A stretch of 64,000 nucleotides of DNA from Polyangia bacterium (lineage in GTDB: Bacteria > Myxococcota_A > Polyangia > Palsa-1104). The DNA lies in assembly GCA_039923495.1 (NCBI GenBank), contig JBDTCO010000042.1:7925-71924 (forward strand), in the 5' to 3' direction. This document shows positions 7,308 to 45,251 of this stretch, piece after piece. A model generated the notes under the pieces. That model was given only the letters and a program-made list of their open reading frames with translations. It made no database searches and was not told the DNA's origin. Position 1 is the first letter of the stretch, and every line of letters starts with the position of its first letter. A program made the position numbers and the translations under genes.

Positions 7308-7335
7308 CGGCCCGCATGATATCGTCTCGCGGGCC

Positions 7336-8988: not shown

Positions 8989-9000
8989 GCTGCTCACGCG

Positions 9001-9222
9001 ATGAGTGCAGACGACGAAGACAACCGCACCTACAAGGTGGTTGTGAACCACGAGGAGCAGTACTCCGTGTGGCTCGCCGATCGCGAGGCGCCGGCGGGCT
9101 GGAGAGAGGTCGGCAAATCGGGAACCAAGGCCGAGTGCCTGTCGCACATCAAAGACGTATGGACCGACATGCGCCCGCTCAGCCTTCGCAAGCACATGGA
9201 AGCCGACGCGCAGAAGCAGTGA
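9001..9222 (+). CDS. MbtH-like protein
   Basis: 73 aa. [19 protein letters not shown]...[18 protein letters not shown] is the canonical MbtH signature, including the three conserved Trp. Confidence 0.9.
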
Positions 9223-9259
9223 TTGTCTCCTGTGACGCCAGCGCCCCCGGGGTGACTCC

Positions 9260-11829: not shown

Positions 11830-11836
11830 CTCGTAG

Positions 11837-12718: not shown

Positions 12719-12753
12719 GTTGCCCGATGAGTTGCCCGATGAGTTGCCGATGA
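12712..12753. repeat. Tandem 12-bp repeat (CCGATGAGTTGC, about 3.5 copies) across the DUF58 stop / BatA-like start junction
   Basis: Read directly: copies at 12712-12723, 12724-12735 and 12736-12747, then a partial copy lacking one C. Each copy contains ATGA. Confidence 0.9.
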
Positions 12754-23327: not shown

Positions 23328-23400
23328 ACGATCACAGGGCGCAAGCGGGTTCAGCTTACATCGTTCCGCCCGACCCCCCGCGTGTATAAAGAAGGCCGCC

Positions 23401-24150
23401 GTGAACGTGTTCGTGCAGCCGCACCTCGACGACGTGGCCTGGTCGTGCGGCGGGACGGTGCGGCGGCTCGCGAGGCAGGCGCCGTGCCGCGTCGTCACGG
23501 TGTTCGATCGCAGTCCCGAGCCGTCGAGATCGCTGTCGCCGTTTGCCCGCATGCTCCACACGGCGTGGGGCGCGGGTCGCGATCCGCTGCCGATGCGACG
23601 CGCCGAGAACGAGCGCGCGCTGCGAATCCTCGGCGCGACGGGCGAGGGCCTGTCGATCCACGAGGCGCTGTACCGCGATCCGCCCGTGTCCTCGAGCGGC
23701 GAGCTTTTGACCCCACCCGGGCCTGCGCTCGCCCCGCTGGTGCGCGAGATCGCGGAGCGCCTCGTCGTGGCGTGCCGTGGTGCGACGCGGGTGTTTCTCC
23801 CGCTCGGCATCGCCACGCACGTCGATCACATGCTGTGCTACGCGGCGCATGAGCGGCTGCGTGCGACCGGTCTGGTGGTGCATCACTACGAGGACTTTCC
23901 CTACGTGACGCGCTTGGGAAAGCTCGTGGCGCGGCTGAACATGGTTCCGGTGCTGGCGTCGTTCACCGTCGACATCGACGACACGCTGCCCGCGCGCATC
24001 GAGGCCATACGAGCGTATCCATCGCAGCTTGGTCCCATGGGCATGGACCGTCCCGACGAGCTCGTGCGCACGCACGCAGCGTCGGTCGTGGAGCGAGGGC
24101 ATGGAGAGCGCTTCTGGACGCTCGATCCACACGACTCCGCGCTGCGGTAA
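23401..24150 (+). CDS. PIG-L/LmbE-family deacetylase
   Basis: GTG 23401. N-terminal VQPHLDDVAWSCGGT (the PHxDD...GGT zinc-site motif) and a later HVDH motif. Confidence 0.75.
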   Translation: MNVFVQPHLDDVAWSCGGTVRRLARQAPCRVVTVFDRSPEPSRSLSPFARMLHTAWGAGRDPLPMRRAENERALRILGATGEGLSIHEALYRDPPVSSSGELLTPPGPALAPLVREIAERLVVACRGATRVFLPLGIATHVDHMLCYAAHERLRATGLVVHHYEDFPYVTRLGKLVARLNMVPVLASFTVDIDDTLPARIEAIRAYPSQLGPMGMDRPDELVRTHAASVVERGHGERFWTLDPHDSALR

Positions 24151-25776: not shown

Positions 25777-27350
25777 GCTTCGACGATGCACTCCTCGATC
25801 CCGAGACCGCGCAGCGCGAGACGCTGCGTCGCCTCATCACCCACAACCAGGACTCGGCGTACGGACGCGATCATGGCTTTGCCGAGATCACGACGTACGA
25901 GCAGTACGCGCAGCGCGTCCCGGAAGCCACGTACGACGCGCTCGAGCCCTACGTCGCGCGCATGCTCGAGGGAGAAGCCGGCGTGCTCGTGAGCGACGAG
26001 GTCGTTTACCTGGCGACGTCGAGCGGCACGACCGGCCGCAAGAAGTACGTGCTCATCAACCCGGGCTTCTACGACGAGACGGTCCGCTGGATGGCGCTCG
26101 AGCAGCGCTTCCTCGAGGCCGCGCACCCCGAGGTCGCGGGCCGGTCCGAGCTGCGCTACGTGAACCGCATCGAGGGCTCGATGCCGACGGGCCTGCCCAT
26201 CGGCGCCGTCAGCGGCTGGTTCTACGGGCAGGAGGTCGCGCGCGGCACGTACACGGAGCTCGTGCCGTACGACGCCTACCAGATAGGCTCGGTCACGGGC
26301 CGGAACTTCGCGGTGCTCGCGTTCGCGCTGCGTCGCAGCTTCGTGCGGCTCTCGGCGGTCAATCCTTCGACGCTGCTGCTCGTCGCGCAGCGCCTCGTCG
26401 CCGATGGTCCCCGGCTGGTGCATGCGGTGCGTGACGGCGGCCTCTCCCACGAGGAGATCGATCCGGCGGCCGCTGCTGCACTTTCTCCGCTGCTCCCGCC
26501 CGATCCTGCGCGCGCGCAGGCGCTCGAGGAGATCCTCGCCCGCGACGGCAAGCTCACGCCGGCCGCCGTGTGGCCCGAGCTGTCGATCCTGTGCTGCTGG
26601 ATCAACGCGGGCGCGGGCCTCTATCGCCAGGATCTCGCCGACACCTTCGGTCCGATCCCCGTGTGGGACTACGGCTACACGTCGAGCGAGGGCCGCGTCA
26701 CGGTCACCGCCGATGATCGCGGTGCCGGTGTCCCGCTGCTGCAGTCCGTGTTCCTCGAGCTCAAGTCCGAGCACGGCGTCATCCCGCTGTTCGCCGCGAA
26801 GGACGGCGACGAGGGCGAGCTGCTCGTCACCAACTCGCGGGGCCTCTATCGCTACGGCATGGGCGACCTCGTGTCGGTGGTCGGCCGCATGCACAAGGCG
26901 CCGCTGCTGCAGTTCCGTCGCAAGACGAGCGCGGTCGCGTCGCTCACCGGCGAGAAGCTCACCGAGGAGCAGGTCGGTCGTGTGGTCGAGCAGATGCTCA
27001 CGAGCCGCGGCCTGCGCTCGCGCTTCTTCTGCCTCGCGCCCGAGTGGGGCCAGCCCCCTGGCTACGTGCTGCTACTCGAGCTGTCGACGAGCATCGAGCA
27101 GCGTGTCCTCGACGAGCTCGCGGGTGCCCTCGAGGTCGGCCTCGTGGATGCGAACGCCGAGTACGAGAAGAAGCGCGAGACGCTTCGCCTCGCCGCGCCG
27201 ATCGTGCAGCTGCTCCCCGCCGGTGCCTACGATGCCTACGTCGCCGCGCAAGCCGCCGCTGGTCGGGAGACCGCCCGCATCAAGACCCCGCGGGTCACGA
27301 TGGACACCAAGCTGGCGCCTCAGTTCCCCGCGCTCGCCCGCTCGAAATAG
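25773..27350 (+). CDS. GH3-family acyl-acid amido synthetase-like adenylating enzyme, copy 2
   Basis: GTG 25773 overlaps the upstream TGA (GTGA). YGRDHGFAEITTYEQYAQRVPEATYDALEPYVARMLEGE...LATSSGTTGRKKYV, YRYGMGDLV and EYEKKR are classic GH3 motifs. The 5' part of track ORF 24396..27350 is off-frame shadow of copy 1. Confidence 0.78.
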   Translation: MSFDDALLDPETAQRETLRRLITHNQDSAYGRDHGFAEITTYEQYAQRVPEATYDALEPYVARMLEGEAGVLVSDEVVYLATSSGTTGRKKYVLINPGFYDETVRWMALEQRFLEAAHPEVAGRSELRYVNRIEGSMPTGLPIGAVSGWFYGQEVARGTYTELVPYDAYQIGSVTGRNFAVLAFALRRSFVRLSAVNPSTLLLVAQRLVADGPRLVHAVRDGGLSHEEIDPAAAAALSPLLPPDPARAQALEEILARDGKLTPAAVWPELSILCCWINAGAGLYRQDLADTFGPIPVWDYGYTSSEGRVTVTADDRGAGVPLLQSVFLELKSEHGVIPLFAAKDGDEGELLVTNSRGLYRYGMGDLVSVVGRMHKAPLLQFRRKTSAVASLTGEKLTEEQVGRVVEQMLTSRGLRSRFFCLAPEWGQPPGYVLLLELSTSIEQRVLDELAGALEVGLVDANAEYEKKRETLRLAAPIVQLLPAGAYDAYVAAQAAAGRETARIKTPRVTMDTKLAPQFPALARSK

Positions 27351-27351
27351 A

Positions 27352-27864
27352 TCACTTCTTCTTTGCCGAGAGGCGTTTCTCGATCGTCTTCTCGAGATCG
27401 GGAATCTCGAGCACGCCGACGATGACCTCGGCCACGTCGCCTTCCTCGTCGAGGAGGAGGGATGTCGGGAGCGCTTCGAGGTTGCCGAGCGTGGCGACCG
27501 TCTTGTTCGGTGTGGACGCGAGCACCGGGTAGCTCACCTGGTGCTTCGCGAGGAACTGCTGCACCAGTGCAGGGTTCTCGTCGATGTCGATGCCGATGAC
27601 CTCGAAGCCGCGAGCCTTGTACTTGTCGCGCAGCTTCGACAGCGCGGGCATCTCGCCGACGCACGGCGAGCACCACGTGGCCCACAGGTTCACGAGCGTG
27701 AGCTTGCTGCCCACGAGCGGTCCGAGCTTCGTGCGCTTGCCATCGAGCGTCGACAGGAAGAGCTCCTGCTTTCGCAGGTCGAGCTTCTTCGGAGCGGCCT
27801 TGGGCGCGGCGAACGACGTGCTCGCCAAAAGGAGGGACGTCGCGACGAGGAGAGAGCGCATCAC
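27352..27864 (-). CDS. Secreted TlpA-like thiol:disulfide oxidoreductase (thioredoxin fold)
   Basis: Signal peptide MMRSLLVATSLLLASTSFA. Active site WATWCSPCVGEMP. The start overlaps the stop of the upstream gene. Confidence 0.85.
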   Translation of the reverse strand: MMRSLLVATSLLLASTSFAAPKAAPKKLDLRKQELFLSTLDGKRTKLGPLVGSKLTLVNLWATWCSPCVGEMPALSKLRDKYKARGFEVIGIDIDENPALVQQFLAKHQVSYPVLASTPNKTVATLGNLEALPTSLLLDEEGDVAEVIVGVLEIPDLEKTIEKRLSAKKK

Positions 27865-28949
27865 GAATAAGGATAAGGCAAGTAGCGAGGCGGCAACAGG
27901 CCGAGATCTTCGACGAACGGCACGTGCTCGAGCGCGATCTTCCCGAAGTACAGGCGCGAGAGATCACCGCCGGTGAGCACGTACTCCTCGACGAGCACGC
28001 GGCCCCACAGGTAGGCGTGGTCCTTGATGTAGCCGCCCGGTGCCTCGGTGTGACACAGGCCACGCTTCACGCGTCTCGTCATGGTGAACGACTCGGGGTG
28101 CGAGAAGCCGAGGTCGCGCAGCTCGGCGTAGACGTCGCGAAACGAGCTCGTGAGCGCGGCCATCGCGGCGATGACGCGCGCGGCGAACACGCGCGTGCGC
28201 GCCGTGTCGATGTAGCCCATGCGCTCCTCGTTGATGACGGCGAGGCCCTCCTCCGTCATGAGGTAGCTGGGCACGGCACCGACGGCGAAGATACGATATG
28301 GCTGGCTGTAGCCGTTGGCGGCGCGTAGCACGTGCGTGTCGATCTCGTGCACGACGAGGCGCTTCATCTCCTCCATGCTCGCCTGCAGATCGGCGCGCAG
28401 GTTGATGAGGCGGTTCGTGGGATCGGTGTTGGTCGCAGACAGGTTCGGCCTCACCTCGACGCGCCAGTCCTCGAGGCCGTACTGGCGGAGGCGCGCGGTG
28501 ACGAGCTTCACCTGATCGGTCGCGCGGAAGGGCCGCTCGACAGGGCGTTGCGACTGCTGCGGCTGCTTGAGGATGCGGCGCGCGAGCTGGATGACGTGCT
28601 CGGGCGCGCGCGGGTATAGCTGCTGCGCCCAGTGCGACTCGTCGCCGATGTTGAGCCGCAGGCCGATGCGCTTGACGAGGTACTCGCGCGCCTGCGTGAA
28701 GAACATGCCGACGCCGTAGCCCGGTAGATCGAGCGACTGCAGCTTCTCGATGTGGGCCGCGAGCAGCGCCTCGTCCTGGTGCGGGTACTCGAAGATCGGG
28801 TTGTAGTTCGGATCGAGCGCGACCTTCGCCATCTCCGCGGCCGAGTTGATCGGATCGAGGTGGTGCAGCGGCAAGGCCTCGGACGCGGCGAGGCAGAGCA
28901 GGCGGTCGGCCTCCTCGAGAGGGAGTGGTGCGGTCGAAGCCATGCTCAA
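27861..28949 (-). CDS. DUF1704 / QEGLA-motif protein (MATCAP-like metallocarboxypeptidase fold)
   Basis: HEIDTH (HExxH), EEGLAV (the QEGLA-like motif) and YIKDHAYLWG. 4-nt overlaps at both ends. Confidence 0.65.
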   Translation of the reverse strand: MSMASTAPLPLEEADRLLCLAASEALPLHHLDPINSAAEMAKVALDPNYNPIFEYPHQDEALLAAHIEKLQSLDLPGYGVGMFFTQAREYLVKRIGLRLNIGDESHWAQQLYPRAPEHVIQLARRILKQPQQSQRPVERPFRATDQVKLVTARLRQYGLEDWRVEVRPNLSATNTDPTNRLINLRADLQASMEEMKRLVVHEIDTHVLRAANGYSQPYRIFAVGAVPSYLMTEEGLAVINEERMGYIDTARTRVFAARVIAAMAALTSSFRDVYAELRDLGFSHPESFTMTRRVKRGLCHTEAPGGYIKDHAYLWGRVLVEEYVLTGGDLSRLYFGKIALEHVPFVEDLGLLPPRYLPYPYS

Positions 28950-30175
28950 AAGTAGTCCGGTGGCTCTTCTGCCACTGAGTAGAGCGCCATCTCCGTCGAC
29001 ATGGGTAGCTCGGGCATGTCTCGACGGTGGAACGCGAGTCGCACCCCGGCCTCGCGCACCGAGATGCGCAGCGTGGTGGCGAGGCGCGCGAGGTCGCGCA
29101 CGGTGGAGCGGACGTTGGTGCCGATGTACTCGCGCGTGTCGTCAGCGGTGTCGAGGATGCCGCGGAAGAGCGCGTCGGCCGCGAGCACCGCGCCGGTGGT
29201 GGCCGCGAAGTTGGGGAGCACCGGCGTGCCGCTCGCGACGAGGACCTTCTCCGCGTGCGTGCTGACCGAGCGCGCCGCCGCCTCGACGACGATGCGGGCG
29301 CGCAGGCGCCCGACGTTGTCGATGGTCACGGCGTCGTTGGACGCGAGGACGAGCGCATCGACGGGCAGCGAGTAGAACTCGTCGAGCGTGATGAACATGT
29401 GCGACGGATCGAGCGACAGCGACACGCGCGCGCCGGTCTCGAGCACCGAGGGGTTGAGGCCGCCCGCCGAGTACACGCCGGCCGAGGCCGAGCCGACCGC
29501 CACGACGGTGGCCCCCATGAGCGCGAGCAGTCGCCCGATCTGCGTGCCGAACGGACCCGCGCCGAGGATCGCGACGGTCTGCTGGCGGTGAAACAGAAAC
29601 TCGCCCATCTCCATGGTCGCGTGCGCGACGGACAGCGCGACCTGCTGCTCGCGCAGCGTGAGGCCGTCGGCGTCGGGCTGATCGAGGACGCGGTTGTACA
29701 GCTCCCAGCGCTCCATGCTCCAGCCCTGGCTGCGACGCACGGCCTCCATGCGCCACGGGAGCTTGTTCGCCTCGACGATGCGCTCGAGCATCACGGCCGG
29801 CACGTTCAGGTCGGGCCCGAGCGAGAGCACGGAGCCGAGGAGCGGCTTGAGCGAGGTGAGGAAGCGGCCGAGGACCTCTTCGATCTCGGGCGCCTGCGGA
29901 TCGTAGTTGAGCCCGAGGCGCGCGCCGCCGATGGGCACGCGTGCGAGCTGGTAGCGAATGGTGCCGATGCGCGCGAGACCGGCGAGATCGGTCCACTGCT
30001 GGTTTCGACGCACGCGGATGCCGCCGAACGCGACGCCCTGCGCGAGCGTGTCGATGATCGCGTAGCCGGGCGCCGCGGTGACGGGATCTCGCCAGTTGAT
30101 GACGAGCTCCGGCTCGGGGCCTTGCGTCATGGGCCCCCGATCCGAAAGACGCCGATCTTCTGACACGCTAGACAT
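28946..30175 (-). CDS. Glu/Leu/Phe/Val-dehydrogenase-family protein with the active-site Lys replaced by Arg
   Basis: FGGIRV substrate loop. The family signature reads V-P-I-G-G-A-R-L-G-L-N-Y-D-P (29897-29938). Rossmann motif AILGAGPFGTQIG. Start is ATG 30175 (8-nt overlap) or ATG 30130. Confidence 0.7.
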   Translation of the reverse strand: MSSVSEDRRLSDRGPMTQGPEPELVINWRDPVTAAPGYAIIDTLAQGVAFGGIRVRRNQQWTDLAGLARIGTIRYQLARVPIGGARLGLNYDPQAPEIEEVLGRFLTSLKPLLGSVLSLGPDLNVPAVMLERIVEANKLPWRMEAVRRSQGWSMERWELYNRVLDQPDADGLTLREQQVALSVAHATMEMGEFLFHRQQTVAILGAGPFGTQIGRLLALMGATVVAVGSASAGVYSAGGLNPSVLETGARVSLSLDPSHMFITLDEFYSLPVDALVLASNDAVTIDNVGRLRARIVVEAAARSVSTHAEKVLVASGTPVLPNFAATTGAVLAADALFRGILDTADDTREYIGTNVRSTVRDLARLATTLRISVREAGVRLAFHRRDMPELPMSTEMALYSVAEEPPDYF

Positions 30176-31793
30176 CCTCGAAACGCAGAATATCACCGTT
30201 CGCCGAGGAACCTGAATTTCGGTTCAGCAACGCATCGATGAGCCCCTTGTGTCGCTCGCGGACCTGATCGCGGCGTACCTTCAGGCTCGGGGTCAGCTCG
30301 CCCGACGGGATGGAGAAGGGCTGCGGCGCGACGCCGATGGCCACGATGCGCTCGTGACGACCGAGCTCCTCGTTGAGCAGCCGGACGTGCAGCGTGAGGT
30401 GTGCCCGCAGCTCGTCCGGCGTCATGAGGGCGGTGCGAAGACGTGGATCGGAGATGGCGTCGAGCACCGCGACGACGTGTGCGTGACCCTCGCCGAACAC
30501 CGCCGCGTGACGCACGCCGGGCAGCGAGGCGAGTCGGGCCTCCAGCGAGGCGGGGTGCACCTTCTTGCCCGTCGACAGGACGAGCAGATCCTTGCGGCGC
30601 CCGGTGATGTGCAGGAAGCCGTCCTCGATGCGGCCGAGATCGCCGGTGCGCACCCCATCGTCGCCGACGAAGAGGTCGGAGGTAGCCTGCGGATCGTCGA
30701 GGTACCCGATGCAGCGGAAGCCCTTGCCGAACAGCAGGACCTCGCCGGTGTCGTCGACCTCGACGCGCGAGCCCGGCAAGGCCTTGCCGACCGCGCCCAT
30801 GACCGAATCGCCCGGTGCGTTGTAGCTGCTCGCCCCGCTGGTCTCGGTCATGCCGTACATCTCGTGCACGGGAATCCCGAGCTTGAAGAGCGCGCGGTGC
30901 GCCTCGATCGCGAGCGGCGCGCCCGTCGACAGCGCGAGCCGGACGCGCTCGAGGCCGAGCGTGGAGCGGACCTCGTGCGACTGCCCGTGCAGCGCAGCGG
31001 CTGCCGTCGCGAGCGTCTGCCACTCGGCGGGCACACCCATGAAGAACGTGGGCCGCACGGCCGCGACGGCCTCCGTGAGACGTCGACCGCGCGGGAAGAC
31101 CACGGAGTAGCCCGACGCCATCGGCAGCACGACGCTCATGAAGATCTCGGCGAGGTGCGCGAAGGACAGGTACGAAAGGTGTCGATCGGACGGCCGGTGC
31201 GCGCGCACCTCCGTCATGCGCCGCGCCGCGCGCAGCATGTTGCCGTGCGAGAGCAGCACGCCCTTCGGCACGCCCGTCGATCCGGACGTGAAGATCACGA
31301 ACGCGATGCGATCTGCGGGCGTGCGCACCGCACCGGGTGGATCGAGCGGCGCGGCCAAGGGTGGCGCGTCATCGATGATCGCGACGTGTGGATCTTGCGG
31401 ACGTGCAGGATTGACGGGCTCGACGAGCTTCGGCGCGAGCCAGTCGAGCAGATCGGGATCACCCATCGCGAGCGCGACGTGCGCGCGCGTGACCAGCGTG
31501 CGCAGCTGCACGGGCGGCGTCGACGGCTCGATCGACACCACGACACCTCCCGCGAGCAGCACGCCGTGCACGAGCGCCGGCACGCGCGCGCGCGTTCGAC
31601 ACACGACGAGCACCGCCTGACCGAGCCGCAGCCCGAGCGCGCGCAGGCGATTCGCGACCTGCTCTGCCTCGAGGTGAAGCTGGAGGTACGTGACGGGCGG
31701 ATCACCGCCGGTCTCGAGGGCGGAGGCCGTTGGCCGTAGCTGCGCCATCTCGGCGAGTGCTGCGCCGATCGTCGCGGGGTGCTCCCACATCAC
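30168..31793 (-). CDS. AMP-dependent synthetase/ligase (ANL superfamily, fatty-acyl-CoA-ligase-like)
   Basis: FTSGSTGVPKGV, YGMTET, GDLGRIEDGFLHITGRRKD and a C-terminal SLKVRR Lys. Confidence 0.85.
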   Translation of the reverse strand: MMWEHPATIGAALAEMAQLRPTASALETGGDPPVTYLQLHLEAEQVANRLRALGLRLGQAVLVVCRTRARVPALVHGVLLAGGVVVSIEPSTPPVQLRTLVTRAHVALAMGDPDLLDWLAPKLVEPVNPARPQDPHVAIIDDAPPLAAPLDPPGAVRTPADRIAFVIFTSGSTGVPKGVLLSHGNMLRAARRMTEVRAHRPSDRHLSYLSFAHLAEIFMSVVLPMASGYSVVFPRGRRLTEAVAAVRPTFFMGVPAEWQTLATAAAALHGQSHEVRSTLGLERVRLALSTGAPLAIEAHRALFKLGIPVHEMYGMTETSGASSYNAPGDSVMGAVGKALPGSRVEVDDTGEVLLFGKGFRCIGYLDDPQATSDLFVGDDGVRTGDLGRIEDGFLHITGRRKDLLVLSTGKKVHPASLEARLASLPGVRHAAVFGEGHAHVVAVLDAISDPRLRTALMTPDELRAHLTLHVRLLNEELGRHERIVAIGVAPQPFSIPSGELTPSLKVRRDQVRERHKGLIDALLNRNSGSSANGDILRFEDV

Positions 31794-32698
31794 GAGTGCG
31801 TGGCGCTCCGTGAGAAGACCGCGGCCTCGATGATGTTGGCGAGCTCGAAGCGACGCGCGTTGCGCAGCGTGAAGTGGTTCGAGTCGCGGATGCGCAGGAA
31901 GCGCGCGAGGCCACCCGGCACGACGCCGAGGAACGCGGCCACGTGCTCGTCGGGAACATCCTCGGCCTCGATGACGAGGGTGGGGACGGCCAGCTGCGCG
32001 AGCGCAAGGAGCGGCACGCGGTTCGGGAACCGCTCCGTCGGCACGCGGAAGACCGGCGGCGACTGCCTGGAGCCTTCGTCATCGGACGCGATGCAGGCGT
32101 CGATGTAGCTCTCCTGCAGCGCGGAGTCGGTGTGCGCGTGCGCCGCGTCGCCGAAGAGCTTCTGCCAGCGCTTGCGCTGGAACTCGGCGGTGTACGGGAT
32201 GTACGTGTTCTCGCGCTGTGCGCTCTCGCGCTCCGCGATCATGGTGTCGAGCAGCGGCCCGGACGTGGCGCCCGCCAGGTAGCAGAGCGATGACGGGTTG
32301 TTGAGGATCGCCAGGCTCACGTGCGGCACGTCGAGCGCCGCGGCGAGCACCTGGATCGCGCCACGCGACGAGCCGAACAGCGTGAGCGGCGCGGGCCAGC
32401 GGCGGCGCGCGTCCTCGGCCACGGCGCGGATGTCCTCGACGGAGTCGTCGAGCGTCTGCAGTGCCCCTGGTGCCGGCGCCGACGACATGCGTGCGTCACG
32501 CTGCGACTTGCCGAAGTTGCGGTGATCGAGCGCGACGGCACGCAGCCCGCGCGACGCGAGCTCCCGGAGGAACGAGTAGCCCGGCACGTCGAGGTCGTAC
32601 GTCGGCTCGAGCGGCGCCGCGATGCCGTGCACGAGCACGACGACGGGCGCATCGAGCGGCAGCCCCTCGCGCTCGGCCACGCGGCAGCGCAGCGTCAC
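31790..32698 (-). CDS. Alpha/beta-fold hydrolase
   Basis: VVVLVHG oxyanion region and nucleophile elbow FGSSRGA (GxSxG). Start uncertain: GTG 32698 is chosen, and the frame is open to about 32739. The stop overlaps the AMP-ligase start. Confidence 0.65.
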   Translation of the reverse strand: MTLRCRVAEREGLPLDAPVVVLVHGIAAPLEPTYDLDVPGYSFLRELASRGLRAVALDHRNFGKSQRDARMSSAPAPGALQTLDDSVEDIRAVAEDARRRWPAPLTLFGSSRGAIQVLAAALDVPHVSLAILNNPSSLCYLAGATSGPLLDTMIAERESAQRENTYIPYTAEFQRKRWQKLFGDAAHAHTDSALQESYIDACIASDDEGSRQSPPVFRVPTERFPNRVPLLALAQLAVPTLVIEAEDVPDEHVAAFLGVVPGGLARFLRIRDSNHFTLRNARRFELANIIEAAVFSRSATHS

Positions 32699-32742
32699 GC
32701 CGTCGCGCGTCGAGACCTCGTAGTCCGCTCTGGTGATGGCGC

Positions 32743-33549
32743 TCAGGTGCAGAGCTCGCGGAGACGCAGCCCCTCGCGCGTCCCCATGCGCATGATGACG
32801 GAGTCGGTGCGATAAAAGACGCCCTTGATGCCCTTGTCCCACAGGCGCGCCTTGGCGATCTCGGGCGTGAGCTCCCCGCCGAGCACGGGCACCGTCATGA
32901 CCGACTTGCCGTACTTGTCGGCCGCGGCGACGATCTTGTCGAGGGCGGCTGCGATCTCCGGGTTGCCGAAGCCCTTGTCGGGCGGCAGGTGGTACGAGTG
33001 CGACAGGTCGACGGGCCCGATGTCGTACATCTCGATGCCCGGCACCGACATGATCTCGTCGATGTTGTCGACGGCTTCCTTGTCCTCGATGATCGGGATG
33101 ATCATCGCCTGATCGTTGGTCCACTCGATGAGGTCGTTCATCTTGCCCTGCGCGTACTTGTTCGCGCGGCTGACCGTGCACAGGCCACGCGTCCCGCGGG
33201 GATGGAAGTACGCGGCGTCGGTCGCGCGCTTGAGGTCCTCGGCGTTGACGACGTGCGGCACCTTGATGATGGGCGCGCCAGTGTTCATCGCGTCCGAGAT
33301 GATGACCGGATCGTTGTCCTTGAGCTTGATGATCGGGACGATGCCGGTGCACTCGGCGGCGCGGACCATGCTCTCGACGGTCTCGGGGTTGATGCTGAGC
33401 ACCTCGGTGTCGACGATGACGAAGTCGAAGCCGGCGTGACCGATGATCTCGACCATGACGGGCGTCATCGTCGAGCACGTCATGCCGAGCACGAGCTGCT
33501 TCTTCTGGACCTTCTCGCGGAATGCTTTGAATCGAGCTACGTCAGCCAT
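32743..33549 (-). CDS. HpcH/HpaI-family aldolase (class II pyruvate aldolase / citrate-lyase-beta-like fold)
   Basis: GFDFVIVDTE, IIPIIEDKEAVDNIDEI and GPVDLS are typical of the family. Confidence 0.78.
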   Translation of the reverse strand: MADVARFKAFREKVQKKQLVLGMTCSTMTPVMVEIIGHAGFDFVIVDTEVLSINPETVESMVRAAECTGIVPIIKLKDNDPVIISDAMNTGAPIIKVPHVVNAEDLKRATDAAYFHPRGTRGLCTVSRANKYAQGKMNDLIEWTNDQAMIIPIIEDKEAVDNIDEIMSVPGIEMYDIGPVDLSHSYHLPPDKGFGNPEIAAALDKIVAAADKYGKSVMTVPVLGGELTPEIAKARLWDKGIKGVFYRTDSVIMRMGTREGLRLRELCT

Positions 33550-33552
33550 GTC

Positions 33553-34083
33553 TCAACCTTTTTTCGTGGAGAACCAATTGTCGATGCCGTCGCACGCGAC
33601 GCGTGCCATGGCGCGACGCTCGTCGTCGAGCACACCGGCGAGCGGGTGCGCGATGAGGACGGTGCGAACGTCGGTCATGCCATAGGCGGTCGCCTCGTTC
33701 CGGGCCAGGGTCTCGAACGGCTCGGTGACGACGACGATCGCCGGCTTGCCCCGGCGCTCGAGAGAGATCGAGTCGTGGATACACCACGACGTGCAGGAGC
33801 CTCAATCACCGGAGGCGATGATCGTCACATCGACCTCCCGCGAGAGGGTATCGAGCGCCATGACGGACGCGGGTGTCGGCGGTGACTTCGTCTGCCGCAC
33901 GACCTTCTTGAACTTGCCGTGACGACGCTCGAGCTCCCGGACGATGTCCTCGAGCAAGAGCGTCGCGTTGGGCTTCTGGTTGTCGAGGATGCCGAGCGTC
34001 ACGCCCGACAGCGAACGCGGCAGTGGGTTCTGCTTCTGCTGCTTGACCTCGGGATGACGGACGGTGGGGATTCGAACGCGCAT
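33553..34083 (-). CDS. Selenoprotein candidate, 176 aa, U-G-S-C motif (TGA 33802-33804 read as selenocysteine)
   Basis: The frame of ORF 33802..34083 continues without stops for 82 codons past the TGA. My hand translation is ...IIASGD-U-GSCTSWCIHDSISLERRGKPAIVVVTEPFETLARNEATAYGMTDVRTVLIAHPLAGVLDDERRAMARVACDGIDNWFSTKKG*. A hairpin lies 11 nt downstream of the TGA. The stop is 3 nt before the next ATG, and the start overlaps the upstream stop (TAATG). Confidence 0.75.
33772..33790 (-). promoter_or_regulatory. SECIS-like stem-loop downstream of the in-frame UGA
   Basis: The mRNA reads UGA-GGCUCCUGCAC-GUCGUGG-UGUAU-CCACGAC. This is a perfect 7-bp stem with a 5-nt loop containing GU, and the loop starts 19 nt after the UGA. 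Confidence 0.55.
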
Positions 34084-35849
34084 TAACAGTCACACTCCGG
34101 GACGAGCGGCGGCGGTGCGCCGGTGGGCGTGTAGTCGATGAGGCGGGTCGCGGGGCGGCCGAAGCCGAAGCTCGGCATGAACGACGAGTGACGACCCGTC
34201 CCGCCCGCGACGAACACGAGGAAGTCCGTGGGAGCGGCGCCGATGGGGATGCCGCGCTCCGTCCACGTGGCCTTGTCGACGTCCTCACGCGCGAGCAGCC
34301 ACTCGCGCATCTCGTCGTTGAGCACCGACGGGAGCACGCGCGCGTTGTCGCACAGCCACGCCTGCACCATCTCGCGCGTCCAGCCGTCGCGCGCGAGCAG
34401 CTTGGCGTGCTCGGGTCCGAGCGCGATCGTCGGGTGACCGCCGCGCGCGAGGTCATTGGTGCCGAACGTGGCCATCGTGCCGGCGAGCATCTTCATGAAC
34501 GACAGCGCCGTCTGCGACGAGTGATCGTTCACGTTGTGCGGGCCCTCGGCCTGACACACGGTGACCACCGACTGCTCGGGTGCGAAGCCGAGCGCGACGT
34601 GGAGCGGTGGGAACGGGCTCTCTTCCTGGTTCTCCGCGACGCAGAAGCCGAAGCGTGCCGGCGAGCCCTGCGTCGTGAAGTCGGTGCGGCCCGGACGACC
34701 CCCGCCGACGTTGCGCAGGATGAGGCGGATGGCGCGACCGATGGTGGCGCTGGCCTGCGTGCCTTCCCCCATCGCGTTGCCCGACAGGTTGAAGCCGAGC
34801 TCGTAGCGGATGGGGCCGCTGATGACGAGGAGCGGCGTCACCGGGTGCGTGGTGGCCTGCACGCCGAGCAGGTTGTAGCGCGGGTCCATCAGCGCCTCTG
34901 TGGCGGCGACGATGACGCAGAAGTACTCGGGCCGGCAGCCCGCCATCACCGCGTTGACCGCGAGCGCCTCGATGGTGACCTCGCCCTGCCTCGGCGCCAT
35001 GAGCCCGAGGACCTCGCCCGCGGGCCGCTTCTGCGACGCGATCATCTGGAGGACCGCCTCGTCGGTCGGCGGGATGATCGGCAGCCCGTCGGTGTAGCCG
35101 CGACGGTAGAACGCGTCGGAGGCGCCACGCGCATCGCGCGGCAGGTTGGTGAAGACGTCGTCCTCGAGCGGCTCCCGCGAGTACGGCCCGTACACGTGCA
35201 CCTCGCCGGGCCCGCCCTCGGCGAGCTCGGCGGCGACGGTTGCATCGTTGGTGGTGTAAAGGACCAGGTACTCGCCGAGCGCTTTTTCGCGACCGTCGTA
35301 GAGGCGCGCCGTTGCGTCCTTGCGCGCGCGCACGGTGGCGACGTGGGTTTCCAGCTCGCTCAGCTTCACCGTCTGGTGCGGCACGAAGCGCATCACGGTG
35401 TGCGCGTGCGTCTGGTCGACCTCTTGCCGCCCCGGCACGAGCTGGTGGTAGAGGCGCCGCGTGAACGTGCGCGTCACCTTCAGCATGCGCGCGGTCCACG
35501 GCGAGCGGTTCACGCCGGCCTTCGACTTGTACGCGTCGGCGTCGAGGCACTCGAGCGAGTCGAGATCGTAGAGCGCGATGTAGCGCGGCGCGATGCGACG
35601 CTCCGCGCGACGTCCCGTGCGAAAGCCGGGGATGCCGAGCCGCTCGGGGATGTGCTCGGTGTCGTACCAGTCGTTGAACTCTTCTTCGAGCTCGGGCGGC
35701 ACGTCGAGCTGCGCGAAGATGAGCCCGAACGCCTTCGCGGCGGCAGGCTTCGGCGTCTTTGCACGCGGCGGAGCGACGCGCTTCTTCGGCGCCCTCGCTC
35801 TCGCAGGCGCAGCCTTGGCCACGGTCTTCCGTCGGCGCTCGGTCGTCAT
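34083..35849 (-). CDS. Two-domain protein of unknown function (basic tail plus EthD/dimeric-alpha-beta-barrel-like N-domain plus about 350-aa uncharacterised C-domain ending in ECDC)
   Basis: 588-aa ORF with good composition. EEEFNDWYDTEHIPERLGIPGF resembles EthD-like barrels. The C-domain (YRRGYTDGLPIIPPTDEAV...) matches nothing I can name. The TAA stop shares one nt with the selenoprotein ATG. Confidence 0.6.
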   Translation of the reverse strand: MTTERRRKTVAKAAPARARAPKKRVAPPRAKTPKPAAAKAFGLIFAQLDVPPELEEEFNDWYDTEHIPERLGIPGFRTGRRAERRIAPRYIALYDLDSLECLDADAYKSKAGVNRSPWTARMLKVTRTFTRRLYHQLVPGRQEVDQTHAHTVMRFVPHQTVKLSELETHVATVRARKDATARLYDGREKALGEYLVLYTTNDATVAAELAEGGPGEVHVYGPYSREPLEDDVFTNLPRDARGASDAFYRRGYTDGLPIIPPTDEAVLQMIASQKRPAGEVLGLMAPRQGEVTIEALAVNAVMAGCRPEYFCVIVAATEALMDPRYNLLGVQATTHPVTPLLVISGPIRYELGFNLSGNAMGEGTQASATIGRAIRLILRNVGGGRPGRTDFTTQGSPARFGFCVAENQEESPFPPLHVALGFAPEQSVVTVCQAEGPHNVNDHSSQTALSFMKMLAGTMATFGTNDLARGGHPTIALGPEHAKLLARDGWTREMVQAWLCDNARVLPSVLNDEMREWLLAREDVDKATWTERGIPIGAAPTDFLVFVAGGTGRHSSFMPSFGFGRPATRLIDYTPTGAPPPLVPECDC

Positions 35850-35902
35850 CGCACGATATCGTAAACGTCTGTCGCGCGCCGATCAAGCGAGCGCGACGCG
35901 CT

Positions 35903-36976
35903 TCAGAACGAGGTGGCGATGCCGACGATGTTGCTGAGGCCGTAGCCGGTGTTCACGCCCGTGAGCGTGTGCGAGATGGTGTAGCTGAGGCCGATCCACT
36001 TGACCGGGAACAGCAGCAGCGTGCCGCCGAAGGTCATGGAGCTGGCGTTGTTGGCCTGGCCGCAGAACTGCGTGAAGGGGTTGCCCTTGGTGGCGATGCC
36101 GTTGCGACCCGGCACGTCGCCGTTCTCGAACGAGTGGAGGCCGCTCAGCGTCGCGATGAGCGTGGCGTGGTCGAACCAGCTCAGCTTCTTCTTGGGGGCG
36201 AGCGTGCCGCCGGCCTGGACGTCCCACGGCAGGTCATCGGAGTACGTGGTGGAGTCCGAGGTCGAGCCGAACTTGCAGCTCGCCTTCTTGAGGCGGTGAC
36301 GGAAGCCGACGTCGGCTGCGAAGAACACAGGGATGGGGTAGAGCGAGTAGCCGAAGCTGCCGCGCGCCTCGATGTCGAAGGTGCCGTTGCCGGTCGGGAT
36401 GGGCAGCGGCTTGGCGCCGGGCAGCATCGCCGCCGCGGGGTACGCGGAGCGGCCGTTCACGTCGCCCGTGGGCGCCGTGAAGTAGAGCTGGGGACCAAAG
36501 GCAAAGCCCTTGAGCGCCCTGATCCTCGGGAGCTGCTGCTTGAGCCCGAAGGTGACGTCGCCGGTGTTGAGCTCGCTGAGCTTCGCGGGGACGACCGTGT
36601 GGATGTCCTGGGTGACGTAGCGGATCACCGGCATCGAGAACGTCGCGCCGAGCCCGCGCCACAGCGAGACCTCGCCGTAGAGCAGCATCGACTGATCGAC
36701 GTAGTTGCTCTTGTAGTTGGCGGTGATGAAACCGCTCGAAGTCGGGATGCTGATGTTGCGGCGAGTGCCGGGCCTGACGGGCTTGAGGTTTTCGTCGACC
36801 TCGCCCGGACCGGCAAAGTAACGGTCCGCCGAGTAGTTGGCGTACGAGAGCTGGATGAATCCATGGCCGGGCCTGTCATCGACCCAGGGCCCGGCCATGG
36901 CTTCGCGGTGCGCGACTCCGAGGCAGAGGAGACCTGCTGTTACAGTAAGGAGTCCACTACGCAGGGAGACGCGCAC
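35903..36976 (-). CDS. Outer-membrane beta-barrel protein
   Basis: Signal peptide, alternating beta-strand pattern, and a C-terminal aromatic residue (...NIVGIATSF). Confidence 0.65.
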   Translation of the reverse strand: MRVSLRSGLLTVTAGLLCLGVAHREAMAGPWVDDRPGHGFIQLSYANYSADRYFAGPGEVDENLKPVRPGTRRNISIPTSSGFITANYKSNYVDQSMLLYGEVSLWRGLGATFSMPVIRYVTQDIHTVVPAKLSELNTGDVTFGLKQQLPRIRALKGFAFGPQLYFTAPTGDVNGRSAYPAAAMLPGAKPLPIPTGNGTFDIEARGSFGYSLYPIPVFFAADVGFRHRLKKASCKFGSTSDSTTYSDDLPWDVQAGGTLAPKKKLSWFDHATLIATLSGLHSFENGDVPGRNGIATKGNPFTQFCGQANNASSMTFGGTLLLFPVKWIGLSYTISHTLTGVNTGYGLSNIVGIATSF

Positions 36977-36983
36977 TGTTTAG

Positions 36984-37853
36984 TTAGTTGTTCGGATCCT
37001 GCGGGGCGAACGAGACGTAGCCCGGCTGCACGTCACAGCCGAACGCCGCCGCGTAGGTGTTGGCGCCGCTGTCGGCCGTCGCGGTGATGTGGATCGTGGT
37101 GGGGGCGGTGAGGCCCGTCTTCGTGAAGCCGTGGATGCCGATCATCGAGTCCGCCTGCTTGACGAACGTGGGGGGCATCGTCATCGGATTGGTGTACCCG
37201 TACTGGTCGAAGCCCGTCTCGGCGACGGCGGTGGTCGACGGCGTGAGCTTCACGTACGGCGCCTGGAAGTGGTCATTCGAGCCGTACATGCAGACGCCCT
37301 GGGTGACGAGCGAGGCGATGTCGATCCCAGCGGCGGCGGCGACGCCGACCGGCGCGGAGTACGGGTTGCTCGTGCAGACGTGGGCGGGGATGCCGGGCAG
37401 CGCCGAGGTGCCGACGACTTCCATGTCCTGCGAGTACGTGTTGACGACCTTCGTCGCGTCGAAGGCATCGGCGACGAGGTGGAGCTTCTTGCCCTGCTCC
37501 GCCTGGATCGTGTAGTTGCACATGTCGTCGGCCATGACCGTCGCGGTCATGCCGCCACCCTCGTACACGCCGTGGACGGGCGTGTTCTTGACGCAGCTCT
37601 TCCCGATGAGCTCCTGCGGGGTGGCGGTCGGGGTCATCTGGAGGTTGAAGGACAGCAGATCGATGTCGATCGTGAAGCCGCTGACCGCGGTCGTCAGTGG
37701 CGCAGTGGCCATGTCGCCCTTGTCGCCGCCGTCGTCCGTGACCACGTGGGCCATGTCGCCCTTGTCGGTGCTGCCGTCCGTCTTGTTGTTGCTGCTACCG
37801 CCGCAACCGATGAGTCCCACTGCCGCTGCTGCAAGAAGATGAGTCTTTTTCAC
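36984..37853 (-). CDS. Lipoprotein of unknown function
   Basis: GTG 37853 is preceded by GGAGG (37859-37863). Lipobox AAAAVGLIGCGG. Contains a duplicated DKGDMA segment. Confidence 0.65.
   Translation of the reverse strand: MKKTHLLAAAAVGLIGCGGSSNNKTDGSTDKGDMAHVVTDDGGDKGDMATAPLTTAVSGFTIDIDLLSFNLQMTPTATPQELIGKSCVKNTPVHGVYEGGGMTATVMADDMCNYTIQAEQGKKLHLVADAFDATKVVNTYSQDMEVVGTSALPGIPAHVCTSNPYSAPVGVAAAAGIDIASLVTQGVCMYGSNDHFQAPYVKLTPSTTAVAETGFDQYGYTNPMTMPPTFVKQADSMIGIHGFTKTGLTAPTTIHITATADSGANTYAAAFGCDVQPGYVSFAPQDPNN

Positions 37854-43273: not shown

Positions 43274-45251
<1,978 letters not shown>

Follow-up and report, generated by a model that had tools for sequence, protein, structure and literature searches.

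The literature still assigns no function to the selenoprotein UGSC (PMC1976440, PMC2398784, PMC13188914), and a gene for it inside a compact gene string of a Polyangia bacterium raises the question of what it does there and in whose company. The string lies in a stretch of 64,000 nucleotides (the window), for which an initial annotation had proposed an eight-gene minus-strand operon of touching or overlapping genes, built around the selenoprotein. ORF check and family searches bore out the coordinates, junctions and families of the eight tightly packed genes (Table 1), and the cluster, taken from the outset for a candidate undescribed system, indeed maps to no described pathway. Read from the sequence, the junctions are TAATG between the first gene (g1) and the UGSC gene, a 3-nt gap before the HpcH-like gene, GTGATG between hydrolase and ANL ligase, ATGTCTAG with an overlap of 8 nt between ANL ligase and ELFV-like gene (preferred start ATG 30175), TTTTGAGCATG between the ELFV-like and MATCAP genes and TCGTGATG between the MATCAP and TlpA genes. 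Protein conservation with the orthologues of loci L171 and L172 extends N-terminally, upstream of GTG 32698, which means that the hydrolase begins right at the stop of the HpcH-like gene or directly beside it; the start is probably a non-canonical CTG 32746 or ATC 32737 rather than the GTG. A minus-strand scan within the string found no terminator-like site, and the gene spacing suggests that the eight genes, upheld as a single compact conserved unit, are probably co-transcribed.

Upstream of g1, the sigma70-like motif described earlier is present at its place, 8 nt before ATG 35849, and a 10-bp palindrome, ACGATATCGT (35862-35853), overlaps the promoter-like region. The motif agrees with the consensus at only 8 of 12 positions, under the scan threshold, and the promoter scan returned 0 sites; TACGATATCG is nevertheless kept in L001, L002 and L010, and in the first two of these it also stands at the same distance from the ATG, despite differing upstream DNA. 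The operon transcript may be leaderless.

Table 1. Features of the cluster and its flanks, with the matches on which the family assignments rest.
Feature	Position	Strand	Matches and remarks
Promoter-like region	35853-35886	-	TTGATC (35886-35881), 17-nt spacer, TACGAT (35863-35858)
g1, 588 aa	35849-34083	-	no Pfam/NCBIfam match except weak DUF4286
UGSC family selenoprotein, 176 aa	34083-33553	-	PF24696 (162 bits, 2e-47); NF041046 (134 bits, cutoff 125)
SECIS-like hairpin	33772-33790	-	stem GUCGUGG, loop UGUAU, stem CCACGAC; 11 nt past UGA
HpcH/HpaI-family protein, 268 aa	33549-32743	-	PF03328 (69 bits)
Alpha/beta-hydrolase	31790-32746	-	Hydrolase_4, Abhydrolase_6; nucleophile motif GSSRG
ANL adenylate-forming ligase, 541 aa	31793-30168	-	AMP-binding (206 bits), AMP-binding_C_3
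ELFV-dehydrogenase-like protein	30175/30196-28946	-	PF00208 and PF02812, weak
MATCAP/DUF1704 metallopeptidase-like protein	28949-27861	-	PF08014 (140 bits); TIGR02421 (153 bits, under its cutoff)
Exported TlpA/ResA-type thiol-disulfide oxidoreductase	27864-27352	-	Redoxin, AhpC-TSA; ResA (98 bits, under its cutoff); WCSPC
GH3b	25773-27350	+	GH3, GH3_M, GH3_C; adenylating amido-synthetase family
GH3a	24163-25776	+	GH3, GH3_M, GH3_C; adenylating amido-synthetase family
Possible PIG-L/LmbE-type deacetylase ORF	23230-24150	+	PF02585 (34.7 bits); immediately upstream of GH3a

The UGSC frame continues beyond an in-frame TGA (33804-33802), read as U in D-U-G-S-C-T-S-W. TGA occupies this position in 158 of the 174 homologous copies, with a Sec to Cys ratio of 158:14. 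RNA folding places the SECIS-like hairpin at the same distance across divergent loci, with a mean MFE of -18.4, whereas mononucleotide shuffling gives -12.8 and the Cys-type homologues average -14.6.

The product of g1 consists of a disordered basic N-terminal tail (aa 1-40), a tandem ABM/DUF4286-like domain (aa ~42-222; 35726-35184) and a C-terminal domain (aa ~240-588; 35132-34086) that ends in CDC. In structure comparisons with the AF2 model (pLDDT 86.8), the N-domain resembles anthrone-oxidase-like and other tandem-ABM structures, and the C-domain matches no PDB fold. The C-domain represents a large family of about 350 aa, absent from Pfam and NCBIfam and marked by about 20 invariant polar residues in the family alignment. 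This domain is a near-universal neighbour of UGSC: of 170 bacterial and archaeal loci, 159 have the two genes side by side, UGSC being its same-strand neighbour in 86/90 and 73/80 loci, and nearly all loci without an adjacent UGSC lie at contig ends. Natural fusions exist in the order UGSC::partner (P0258, P0251, P0255, P0260, Vibrio and Sporomusa proteins) and in the opposite order (P0259, P0262, P0328). UGSC and the C-terminal domain of g1 together make up a single, widespread two-component protein, each contributing one half; as a two-gene module the pair is portable and turns up in over 150 contexts that are unrelated to each other.

A connection of this pair to the thioredoxin system is seen in the trxB-trxA-partner-UGSC operon of Arthrobacter sp. 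ERGS1:01, in Roseovarius THAF8 and Variovorax SRS16, where trxB adjoins the pair, and in a partner::TrxR-like fusion (P0279). Of 170 other loci, 11 contain a TrxR homologue, which in several cases lies no more than about 1.5 kb away from the pair; a dedicated trxB is absent from about 90% of UGSC-partner loci. No TrxR was found in the window, where the sole thioredoxin-fold gene encodes the exported TlpA-type protein. The initial annotation had assigned a redox step with the selenoprotein to this periplasmic thioredoxin. Its signal peptide is conserved, a hydrophobic N-terminal leader being recognisable on visual inspection of the proteins from the window, L001 and L010, which makes recycling of a cytoplasmic selenoprotein unlikely, and in other genomes the redox partner is cytoplasmic TrxR/Trx. 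Taken together, there is moderate support for the UGSC-partner pair as a thioredoxin-system-dependent redox enzyme.

It is conceivable, if rather improbable, that the pair is instead a non-redox isomerase, epimerase, hydratase or lyase of small hydroxy- or unsaturated di- and tricarboxylic acids, in which Sec or Cys acts as nucleophile or acid-base group and thioredoxin merely keeps it reduced. Fused members without Sec and Cys adjoin aconitase X and DUF126, and LarA, MmgE/PrpD, CoA-transferase III, RraA, the isocitrate-lyase/PEP-mutase family and TctC and TRAP carboxylate transporters are recurrent neighbours. The best fold hits of the partner, class I fumarate hydratase and MmgE/PrpD-type proteins, point the same way but are not significant (E at least 0.065, TM at most 0.25). 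Such an enzyme would hardly explain the U-x-x-C spacing of a classic redox pair or the strong preference for Sec, and both the trxB-trxA operon and the TrxR fusion are more than an enzyme would require simply to stay reduced. Sec and Cys are both gone from certain fused UGSC-like domains (DMGTS in Vibrio and Sporomusa; P0257, P0271), and for the family as a whole redox chemistry therefore cannot be the only role.

The other half of g1 belongs elsewhere. In L171 and L172, a standalone tandem-ABM gene (47-58% identity) is followed by HpcH-like (83%) and hydrolase (70%) genes with no selenoprotein between them and with O-methyltransferase, SDR and SnoaL genes as neighbours. The tandem-ABM domain makes up a second module together with the HpcH-like protein and the alpha/beta-hydrolase, and this module occurs independently as well; the portable UGSC pair is therefore not what the operon is built around. 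The HpcH-like gene is the most conserved of the cluster (71-96% identity). Its product keeps the Glu/Asp metal ligands and carries Val and Lys at HpaI His45 and Arg70 (alignment to PDB 4tv5), substitutions conserved in orthologues, and the label of a pyruvate-type aldolase is not supported. The GSSRG motif of the hydrolase is likewise conserved in orthologues, and the protein has no relative among PDB sequences.

The conserved unit exceeds eight genes and includes the two GH3 genes, which converge on the operon, the GH3b stop lying 1 nt from the TlpA stop. The full order recurs in L001 (85% g1 identity), JGI 3300050046 (65%) and L010 (67%), and such a repetition across contigs that are independent, with proteins 65-85% identical, puts the arrangement far beyond chance. 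Reduced versions (L003, JGI 3300047160, L006, JGI 3300042731) retain g1 or the partner, UGSC, HpcH, hydrolase and usually GH3, which is present in two copies each in L001, JGI 3300050046, L010 and L003 and in one each in L006 and JGI 3300042731. The possible PIG-L-type ORF, at most a candidate member of the cluster, overlaps the N-terminal part of a minus-strand ATP-grasp-like ORF (22071-23816), which makes the gene limits tentative. Co-conservation with UGSC is narrow: aldolase, hydrolase and GH3 accompany it in one subclade only, and the genes for ANL ligase, ELFV-like protein, MATCAP and TlpA are confined to the closest relatives.

That subclade, with partners ending in CDC, is tied to HpcH and hydrolase in 8/8 loci examined, and to GH3 where the contig extends far enough; each of the nine listed two-domain homologues (56-85% identity to g1) carries the fusion of tandem ABM to partner. 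Both observations, together with a partner whose size and invariant polar residues resemble a substrate-specific enzyme, leave very little room for the idea that the genes are co-transcribed without sharing a pathway, the pair being a general thiol/selenol defence module against peroxide, electrophile or disulfide stress that was inserted and fused by chance. This idea draws on the diversity of genes beside the portable pair, on the second module working without it and on the TrxR association also typical of peroxiredoxin-type systems.

The clade-specific accessories are the four genes downstream of the hydrolase. The ANL ligase is similar to FadD and MatB; in NCBIfam it comes closest to fatty-acid-CoA ligases, with every score well under the respective cutoff, and its closest PDB match is malonyl-CoA synthetase. 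The ELFV-like protein retains the Rossmann GxGxxG, and Phe, Tyr and Arg replace three conserved lysines, the catalytic one included (alignment to GDH 1v9l), also in L001 and L010, and the label of a dehydrogenase is not supported either. The conserved MATCAP motif is HEIDTH, that is HExxxH and not HExxH.

The cluster is a mosaic of three parts: the UGSC-partner pair, the tandem-ABM module and these accessories. At about even probability, it is best explained as a conserved metabolic cluster of about ten genes, in which a thioredoxin-dependent two-subunit selenoenzyme provides the redox step toward an amide- or ester-linked conjugate. The substrate pocket, with many invariant His, Glu, Asp, Arg and Asn residues, would come from the partner; UGSC, through its U-x-x-C, would carry out a two-electron step to a selenenylsulfide, and TrxR/Trx would re-reduce it, with the conserved C-D-C tail possibly relaying electrons in this clade. 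As a tailoring step, this would serve the biosynthesis of a carboxylic-acid/amino-acid conjugate, its acid moiety possibly fatty or 2-oxo, built by three adenylating enzymes (two GH3 and the FadD-like ANL ligase). The hydrolase would serve as an acyltransferase or esterase, trimming of the product would fall to the MATCAP-like peptidase, and the 2-oxo/amino-acid part would be provided or modified by the HpcH-like and ELFV-like proteins, both of them non-canonical. An amide/ester-bond theme runs through the genes (two GH3, ANL, MATCAP, two alpha/beta-hydrolases, with ATP-grasp and PIG-L genes nearby). OlsH, the only characterised bacterial GH3, makes N-acyl-ornithine and acts alongside the alpha/beta-hydrolase acyltransferase OlsI (PMC12493201).

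A role of the pair in conjugate biosynthesis is weakly suggested, and its general neighbourhoods, with TctC and TRAP transporters, acyl-CoA dehydrogenases, CoA-transferases and LysR regulators, look catabolic and count against it. The cluster might accordingly import and dismantle an environmental conjugate, such as an acyl-amino acid or an aromatic or hydroxy-acid derivative, with hydrolases freeing the parts, ligases activating them as CoA or AMP esters and the HpcH-like protein cleaving a 2-oxo-acid. HpcH-type aldolases with alpha/beta-hydrolases are typical of lower meta-cleavage pathways, and L006 adds MR_MLE, RraA and a Phenol_MetA_deg channel. This seems unlikely, however, for a conserved cluster without transporter, regulator or ring-cleaving oxygenase, whose HpcH-like protein has neither the catalytic His nor the catalytic Arg of canonical members; with three to four ligases that consume ATP, the cluster points toward synthesis, and the O-methyltransferases, SnoaL-like, KR/SDR and ThDP enzymes of related loci are typical of biosynthetic tailoring. 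Whatever the product, the most useful outcome is that the long-unexplained UGSC is almost always accompanied by an uncatalogued partner enzyme.

All eight open reading frames that the initial annotation had placed on the minus strand of the window (GC content ~69%), from 35849 to 27352, are present with the identities it had predicted. Their junctions also read as it gave them: TAATG, a 3-nt gap, GTGATG, ATGTCTAG, TTTTGAGCATG and TCGTGATG. No terminator-like site was found on the minus strand within this string. Orthologues conserve residues upstream of GTG 32698, so the alpha/beta-hydrolase (ABH) gene probably begins right at the HpcH stop, with a non-canonical codon. Between 32698 and 32746 (minus strand) no ATG, GTG or TTG start includes this conserved N-terminus, which implies that translation begins either at a CTG that shares bases with the HpcH stop (CTGA) or at an ATC. 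Two GH3 genes on the plus strand, GH3a and GH3b, converge on the operon, and the stop codons of GH3b and of the TlpA-like gene lie 1 nt apart (27350-27352). With no space left for a terminator, the two transcripts are bound to overlap or to run into one another. The homologous loci L001 and L010 carry a small ORF between these two genes.

Genes of the minus-strand operon, in order of transcription (window coordinates)
Gene	Coordinates	Strand	Remarks
g1	35849-34083	minus	588 aa; no Pfam or NCBIfam match
UGSC	34083-33553	minus	in-frame TGA 33804-33802, giving D-U-G-S-C; PF24696 2e-47; NF041046 above cutoff
HpcH_HpaI	33549-32743	minus	HpcH/HpaI family
alpha/beta-hydrolase	end 31790	minus	GSSRG motif
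ANL ligase	31793-30168	minus	AMP-binding
ELFV-like	30175-28946	minus	Glu/Leu/Phe/Val dehydrogenase-like
MATCAP/DUF1704	28949-27861	minus	metallopeptidase-like
TlpA/ResA-like	27864-27352	minus	redoxin

The promoter that had been proposed directly upstream of g1 matches 8 of 12 consensus positions and was not called by a consensus promoter scan, which returned 0 sites at its threshold, but the element TACGATATCG is kept in L001, L002 and L010. Its distance to the ATG is equal in L001 and L002 despite unrelated upstream DNA, a spacing that fits a leaderless start. The element forms part of a perfect 10-bp palindrome, ACGATATCGT (35853-35862, minus strand), which overlaps the -10-like hexamer shortly before g1. 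The core of the palindrome, CGATATCG, is kept in the same three loci, and the palindrome could be a regulator site, instead of or besides a promoter element. Upstream of the operon lie genes for two proteins with no Pfam match (35903-36976 and 36984-37853) and, in the region to 44122, a gene with a cytochrome P460 domain, a tandem run of three to four NHL-repeat genes and an MbnP-family gene (43274-44122). L001 shows synteny for the NHL, P460 and no-match genes; there, a transposase fragment parts them from g1. Elsewhere in the window (7102-18630, plus strand), a gamma-glutamyltranspeptidase gene is followed by a Bat-like operon, MoxR(AAA_3)-DUF58-VWA-VWA-TPR.

By profile scores and motif, the second gene is a bona fide member of the UGSC family with predicted selenocysteine (Sec) insertion. 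It reaches 161.9 bits against PF24696 (cutoff 25) and 134.4 against NF041046 (cutoff 125), and carries the motif D-U-G-S-C-T, the TGA being followed by GSCTSW. A SECIS-like hairpin of 7 bp (GUCGUGG, loop, CCACGAC) begins 11 nt past the UGA and is conserved in homologues. Among homologous copies, the U position is a TGA in 158 and Cys in 14. No tRNA genes, and hence no tRNA-Sec, were found within the window, and searches of the PDB by sequence and profile returned nothing significant for UGSC. UGSC proteins, a family covered by the metagenome surveys of Zhang & Gladyshev, are among the top selenoprotein families of ocean and freshwater metagenomes. The family has no assigned function and is listed as uncharacterised in a 2026 review (PMC13188914). 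In Paracoccus ferrooxidans, plasmid pFER4 (L179 10350-12125) carries selB 3 kb from a Sec-type UGSC/partner pair, with DsrE, TusA and cysteine desulfurase genes also nearby; the record of this plasmid breaks the UGSC gene at the TGA and lists it as two separate hypothetical ORFs.

The protein of the first gene, g1, combines two unrelated domains, and its C-terminal domain is what ties it to UGSC. The AlphaFold2 model of the whole protein has a pLDDT of 86.8, and residues ~240-588, modelled alone, reach 88. This C-terminal domain, hereafter the partner, has no Pfam, NCBIfam or PDB-profile match. Sequence, profile and fold searches of the PDB gave nothing significant for it; the best fold match (E 0.065, TM 0.25) is insignificant and no function can therefore be assigned from the fold. 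The family is nevertheless large, with more than 3,000 word-index matches and, in an exhaustive profile search, 7,749 representatives at 50% identity from bacteria and archaea, 5,081 of them at E <= 1e-10. In its alignment some 50 positions are invariant; many of these are His, Glu, Asp, Arg, Asn, Ser or Thr, and none is Cys.

The association between UGSC and the partner was followed across 170 partner loci (10 contig look-ups, 80 species-representative genomes and 80 metagenomes). The initial annotation had asked whether the 588-aa protein, the aldolase and the ANL (adenylate-forming) ligase are conserved together with UGSC. For the partner this holds almost universally, UGSC adjoining it on the same strand in 159 of the 170 loci, with nearly all exceptions at contig ends, whereas the aldolase-like gene accompanies UGSC only in one subclade and the ligase only in the closest relatives. 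Hosts of the pair include Rokubacteria/Methylomirabilota, Chloroflexota, alpha- and betaproteobacteria, Actinobacteria (Mycobacterium gordonae, Blastococcus), haloarchaea and Nitrosocosmicus. The two are also fused, and in both orders. UGSC::partner proteins occur in a Cys-type (P0258) and a Sec-type form (P0251, P0255 and P0260, whose called ORFs start past the TGA), and also in Vibrio europaeus and Sporomusa termitida. The called partner::UGSC proteins (P0259, P0262, P0328) end in "...GD" exactly ahead of the Sec codon. Among the best 150 of the 7,749 representatives, length and match position in about one third fit UGSC/partner fusions or tandem partner fusions. UGSC and the partner domain are thus two halves of one unit. 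A 2008 GOS study mentions a fusion of UGSC to a domain termed 'Unknown_1', probably the same as the partner. On plasmid 2 of Halalkalicoccus jeotgali (L178 4279-6978), in L053, L046 and L104, and in other loci, a single UGSC is flanked by a pair of partner paralogues, or UGSC/partner sets stand in tandem, two to three at a time. Together with the partner::partner fusion proteins (P0256, P0300, P0314, P0359), these arrangements suggest that the partner works as a (pseudo)dimer.

A thioredoxin-dependent redox cycle would be the best-supported mechanism for this pair, given its gene contexts and the U-x-x-C motif. Arthrobacter sp. ERGS1:01 has the gene order trxB-trxA-partner-UGSC, in which trxA and the start of the partner gene overlap; the order in Roseovarius sp. 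THAF8 is partner-UGSC-trxB, and in Variovorax sp. SRS16 trxB lies three genes upstream of the pair. P0279 fuses the partner to a thioredoxin reductase (TrxR)-like part, which has a CAVC motif and a Pyr_redox_2 domain. Of the 170 other loci, 11 contain a TrxR homologue, in several cases no more than ~1.5 kb away from the pair, and Pyr_redox_2 is among the recurrent families flanking it. Most UGSC/partner loci lack a dedicated trxB, and no TrxR was found within the window. The TlpA-type thioredoxin of the operon, which, like the selenoprotein, had been expected to add a redox step, was dismissed as its reductant on account of an export signal in all three orthologues, and such an exported redoxin is predicted to be an unlikely donor for UGSC. 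Several fused UGSC-like domains have neither Sec nor Cys (DMGTS), so that some members of the family, at the least, may have a non-redox role, next to the thioredoxin cycle that the reductase contexts favour. In two unrelated bacteria, a UGSC-like::partner fusion of the DMGTS type lies beside the large and small (DUF126) subunits of aconitase X, on plasmid pVEu of Vibrio europaeus (L176 3001-7008) and pSPTER of Sporomusa termitida (L177 1878-7032).

The proposed arrangement resembles that of glycine and D-proline reductases, in which a Sec subunit with U-x-x-C (GrdB, PrdB) would be matched by UGSC and a larger substrate-binding subunit (GrdE, PrdA) by the partner. The grd and prd operons carry trxB-trxA, as does the Arthrobacter operon; both systems appear to be fed by thioredoxin, and both may be placed in carboxylate or amino-acid metabolism. 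Membership in these families was nonetheless rejected, because neither seven UGSC sequences nor the partner domain had any similarity to the GRDB or Gly_reductase Pfam families even at E <= 10, and the likeness is one of analogy. No PDB-profile match was obtained for UGSC or the partner, GrdA and GrdCD genes are absent, and there is no evidence of a pyruvoyl proenzyme. Unlike grd/prd, the pair is hosted mostly by taxa usually regarded as aerobic, plus archaea.

To narrow down the substrate, Pfam families were tallied in 283 ORFs flanking 80 UGSC/partner pairs. No constant third component emerged, since no family exceeds ~6% of these ORFs. The recurrent families are TctC (16) and TRAP, both carboxylate-uptake proteins, acyl-CoA dehydrogenases, CoA-transferase III, SDRs, LarA, MmgE/PrpD and amidohydrolase_2; annotated plasmids with the pair additionally carry RraA, isocitrate-lyase/PEP-mutase, HMG-CoA lyase and LysR regulators. 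The recurring families point to small organic acids as the putative general substrate class. A 2-phosphosulfolactate phosphatase (ComB-like) gene lies at 18635-19477 (plus strand) of the window, 9 kb from the operon, and in both Arthrobacter sp. ERGS1:01 and Natrinema zhouii the pair has a ComA-like phosphosulfolactate synthase gene close by, a few genes away (L175 4689-5477; L180 2853-3320). These may hint at a link to organosulfonates or sulfolactate, or be a coincidence.

How far the operon itself is conserved was examined by viewing g1 homologues in their own contigs. L001 (g1 identity 85%), a JGI 3300050046 contig (65%) and L010 (67%; from GCA_043741435.1) show the complete order g1-UGSC-HpcH-ABH-ANL-ELFV-MATCAP-redoxin, and in all three it is followed by two convergent GH3 genes. 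The conserved cluster is therefore larger than the eight-gene unit originally delimited. In L003 (63%), a ThDP enzyme, two methyltransferases and another hydrolase take the place of the last three operon genes; g1, UGSC, HpcH, ABH, ANL and two GH3 genes are retained. JGI 3300047160 retains g1, UGSC, HpcH and ABH beside an O-methyltransferase and an HMGL-like protein. In L006 and JGI 3300042731 the partner, which belongs to the same subclade (C-terminal C-D/E-C), consists of a single domain and is accompanied by UGSC, HpcH, ABH and GH3, and also by ELFV-like or MR_MLE/RraA genes. It follows that the partner domain, UGSC, HpcH, ABH and GH3 are the conserved core of the subclade, and that the ANL ligase and the ELFV-like, MATCAP and redoxin proteins are accessories of the closest relatives. 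The matches listed in a metagenome scan for close g1 relatives were all at <=56% identity and included no further two-domain loci, so that statistics on this clade rest on eight loci. A plasmid search found no orthologues of the HpcH variant or of GH3b in cultured strains.

The N-terminal domain of g1 is unrelated to the partner. In the predicted structure, residues ~42-222 form two ferredoxin-like (ABM) domains, which matched the anthrone-oxidase-like 5f9p, FN1347, 2pgc, PenE and HemQ/Cld in Foldseek (E 2e-6 to 1e-3, probability 1.0), with a weak DUF4286 match. The fold is thus that of tandem-ABM cofactor-free oxygenases such as 5f9p and PenE, sequence identity to tandem-ABM structures being just 7-13% and the likeness one of fold alone. 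Standalone homologues of this tandem domain (ABM2) are ~200 aa long and match DUF4286, EthD or ABM in Pfam; among such proteins, fusion with the UGSC partner is peculiar to the window's clade. In L171 and L172, a standalone ABM2 gene lies directly upstream of HpcH (83% identical to that of the window) and ABH (70%), with neither partner nor UGSC in between and with an O-methyltransferase, an SDR/KR and a SnoaL_4 protein as neighbours. ABM2-HpcH-ABH is therefore an independent module, and in the window's clade the partner became fused to ABM2, with UGSC behind it. The operon is a mosaic and, contrary to the initial annotation, is not organised around the selenoprotein.

Two of the remaining enzymes depart from their families at key positions. 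The HpcH-like protein scores 68.9 bits against PF03328, above the gathering score, and 103 bits against PDB 4tv5, where IIEDKE and GPVDLS align with the metal ligands Glu149 and Asp175. The catalytic residues of the HpaI family are His45 and Arg70 (HpaI numbering). DTEV puts Val at the first position and PIIKL puts Lys at the second, substitutions (Val or Met, and Lys) that are kept in L001, L010, L003, L171 and L172. The protein thus shares fold family and metal Glu/Asp with the class II pyruvate aldolases HpaI and GarL, without their catalytic His and Arg, and its equivalog scores are far under the cutoffs (120 vs 407). The ELFV-like protein matches PF00208 (53 bits) and PF02812 (35 bits), carries its Rossmann GxGxxG as ILGAGPFG, and scores 77 in NCBIfam against cutoffs of at least 620. 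Aligned with the glutamate dehydrogenase 1v9l, it reads FGG for KGG, RYQ for LKN and GGAR for GGAK, so that Phe, Tyr and Arg replace three conserved lysines, the catalytic one included, as they do in L001 and L010. The initial labels of aldolase and dehydrogenase-like protein hold for the Pfam families and for the metal ligands and dinucleotide fold, but not for the catalytic residues; with these replaced, and the replacements conserved in orthologues, pyruvate aldolase or amino-acid dehydrogenase activity cannot be assumed from sequence.

The ANL ligase (PF00501, 206 bits; PF23562, 48 bits; below every equivalog cutoff) has FadD-type and malonyl-CoA ligases as its nearest relatives. A second ANL-family ORF at 48502-50106 (plus strand) shares 28% identity with it. 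The MATCAP protein (PF08014, 140 bits; TIGR02421, 153 against a cutoff of 339) has a conserved HEIDTH, that is HExxxH, instead of the HExxH first reported. The TlpA/ResA-like protein (Redoxin, 76.7 bits; WCSPC motif) has a hydrophobic N-terminal leader which, judged by eye, is conserved in three orthologues. GH3a and GH3b both contain GH3, GH3_M and GH3_C domains and are only 25% identical to each other. Beyond them lie an ATP-grasp/glutathionylspermidine-synthetase-like ORF (22071-23816, minus strand) and a possible PIG-L deacetylase ORF (23230-24150, plus strand), which overlap by ~590 nt; the cluster may reach as far as these two ORFs, together with GH3a and GH3b.

Enzymes of amide and ester bonds abound at the locus, namely two GH3 proteins, the ANL ligase, the ATP-grasp-like protein and possible PIG-L deacetylase, MATCAP and two alpha/beta-hydrolases. 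A literature search found a single characterised bacterial GH3, OlsH of Singulisphaera acidiphila, which acts in ornithine-lipid synthesis; it makes N-acyl-ornithine and has the alpha/beta-hydrolase O-acyltransferase OlsI as its working partner (PMC12493201). The cluster likewise combines a GH3-type enzyme with an alpha/beta-hydrolase, a likeness of families and gene grouping alone; ABH and GH3 share 4 nt in L006, and by analogy the FadD-like ligase could provide the acyl donor. The OlsG methyltransferase has no counterpart in the cluster, which in turn has the selenoenzyme pair, the HpcH-like, ELFV-like and MATCAP-like proteins and two GH3 paralogues beyond the OlsH/OlsI pathway. Because of this enzyme content and the OlsH/OlsI precedent we favour, with low confidence, a cluster that would build an amide- or ester-linked acid/amino-acid conjugate, possibly lipid-like, in which g1 and UGSC would perform a redox tailoring step. 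The main rival to such a biosynthetic role is a catabolic one.

With confidence a little short of even, UGSC and the partner may be seen as an unrecognised class of thioredoxin-dependent two-subunit selenoenzyme, which in this clade would have been joined to a domain resembling cofactor-free oxygenases and drawn into a biosynthetic cluster. The UGSC family was already known; the near-obligate partner, the fusions in both orders, the TrxR/Trx links and the ABM2::partner fusion are undescribed in the literature and libraries searched. The proposal of an undescribed system thus stands as regards novelty and conservation, but for a mosaic that is not centred on the selenoprotein. If true, this would account for a selenoprotein that ranks among the most abundant in aquatic metagenomes and has had no known function since 2007. 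With partner pairing and thioredoxin ties, the orphan selenoprotein would become a defined enzyme of two components with a proposed electron donor. Cys-type versions exist in cultured Arthrobacter sp. ERGS1:01, Roseovarius sp. THAF8, Variovorax sp. SRS16 and Halalkalicoccus jeotgali B3, which makes the family directly testable by biochemistry, and the window would provide an example of a UGSC/partner module recruited into a clade-specific cluster with non-canonical enzymes and bacterial GH3 proteins.
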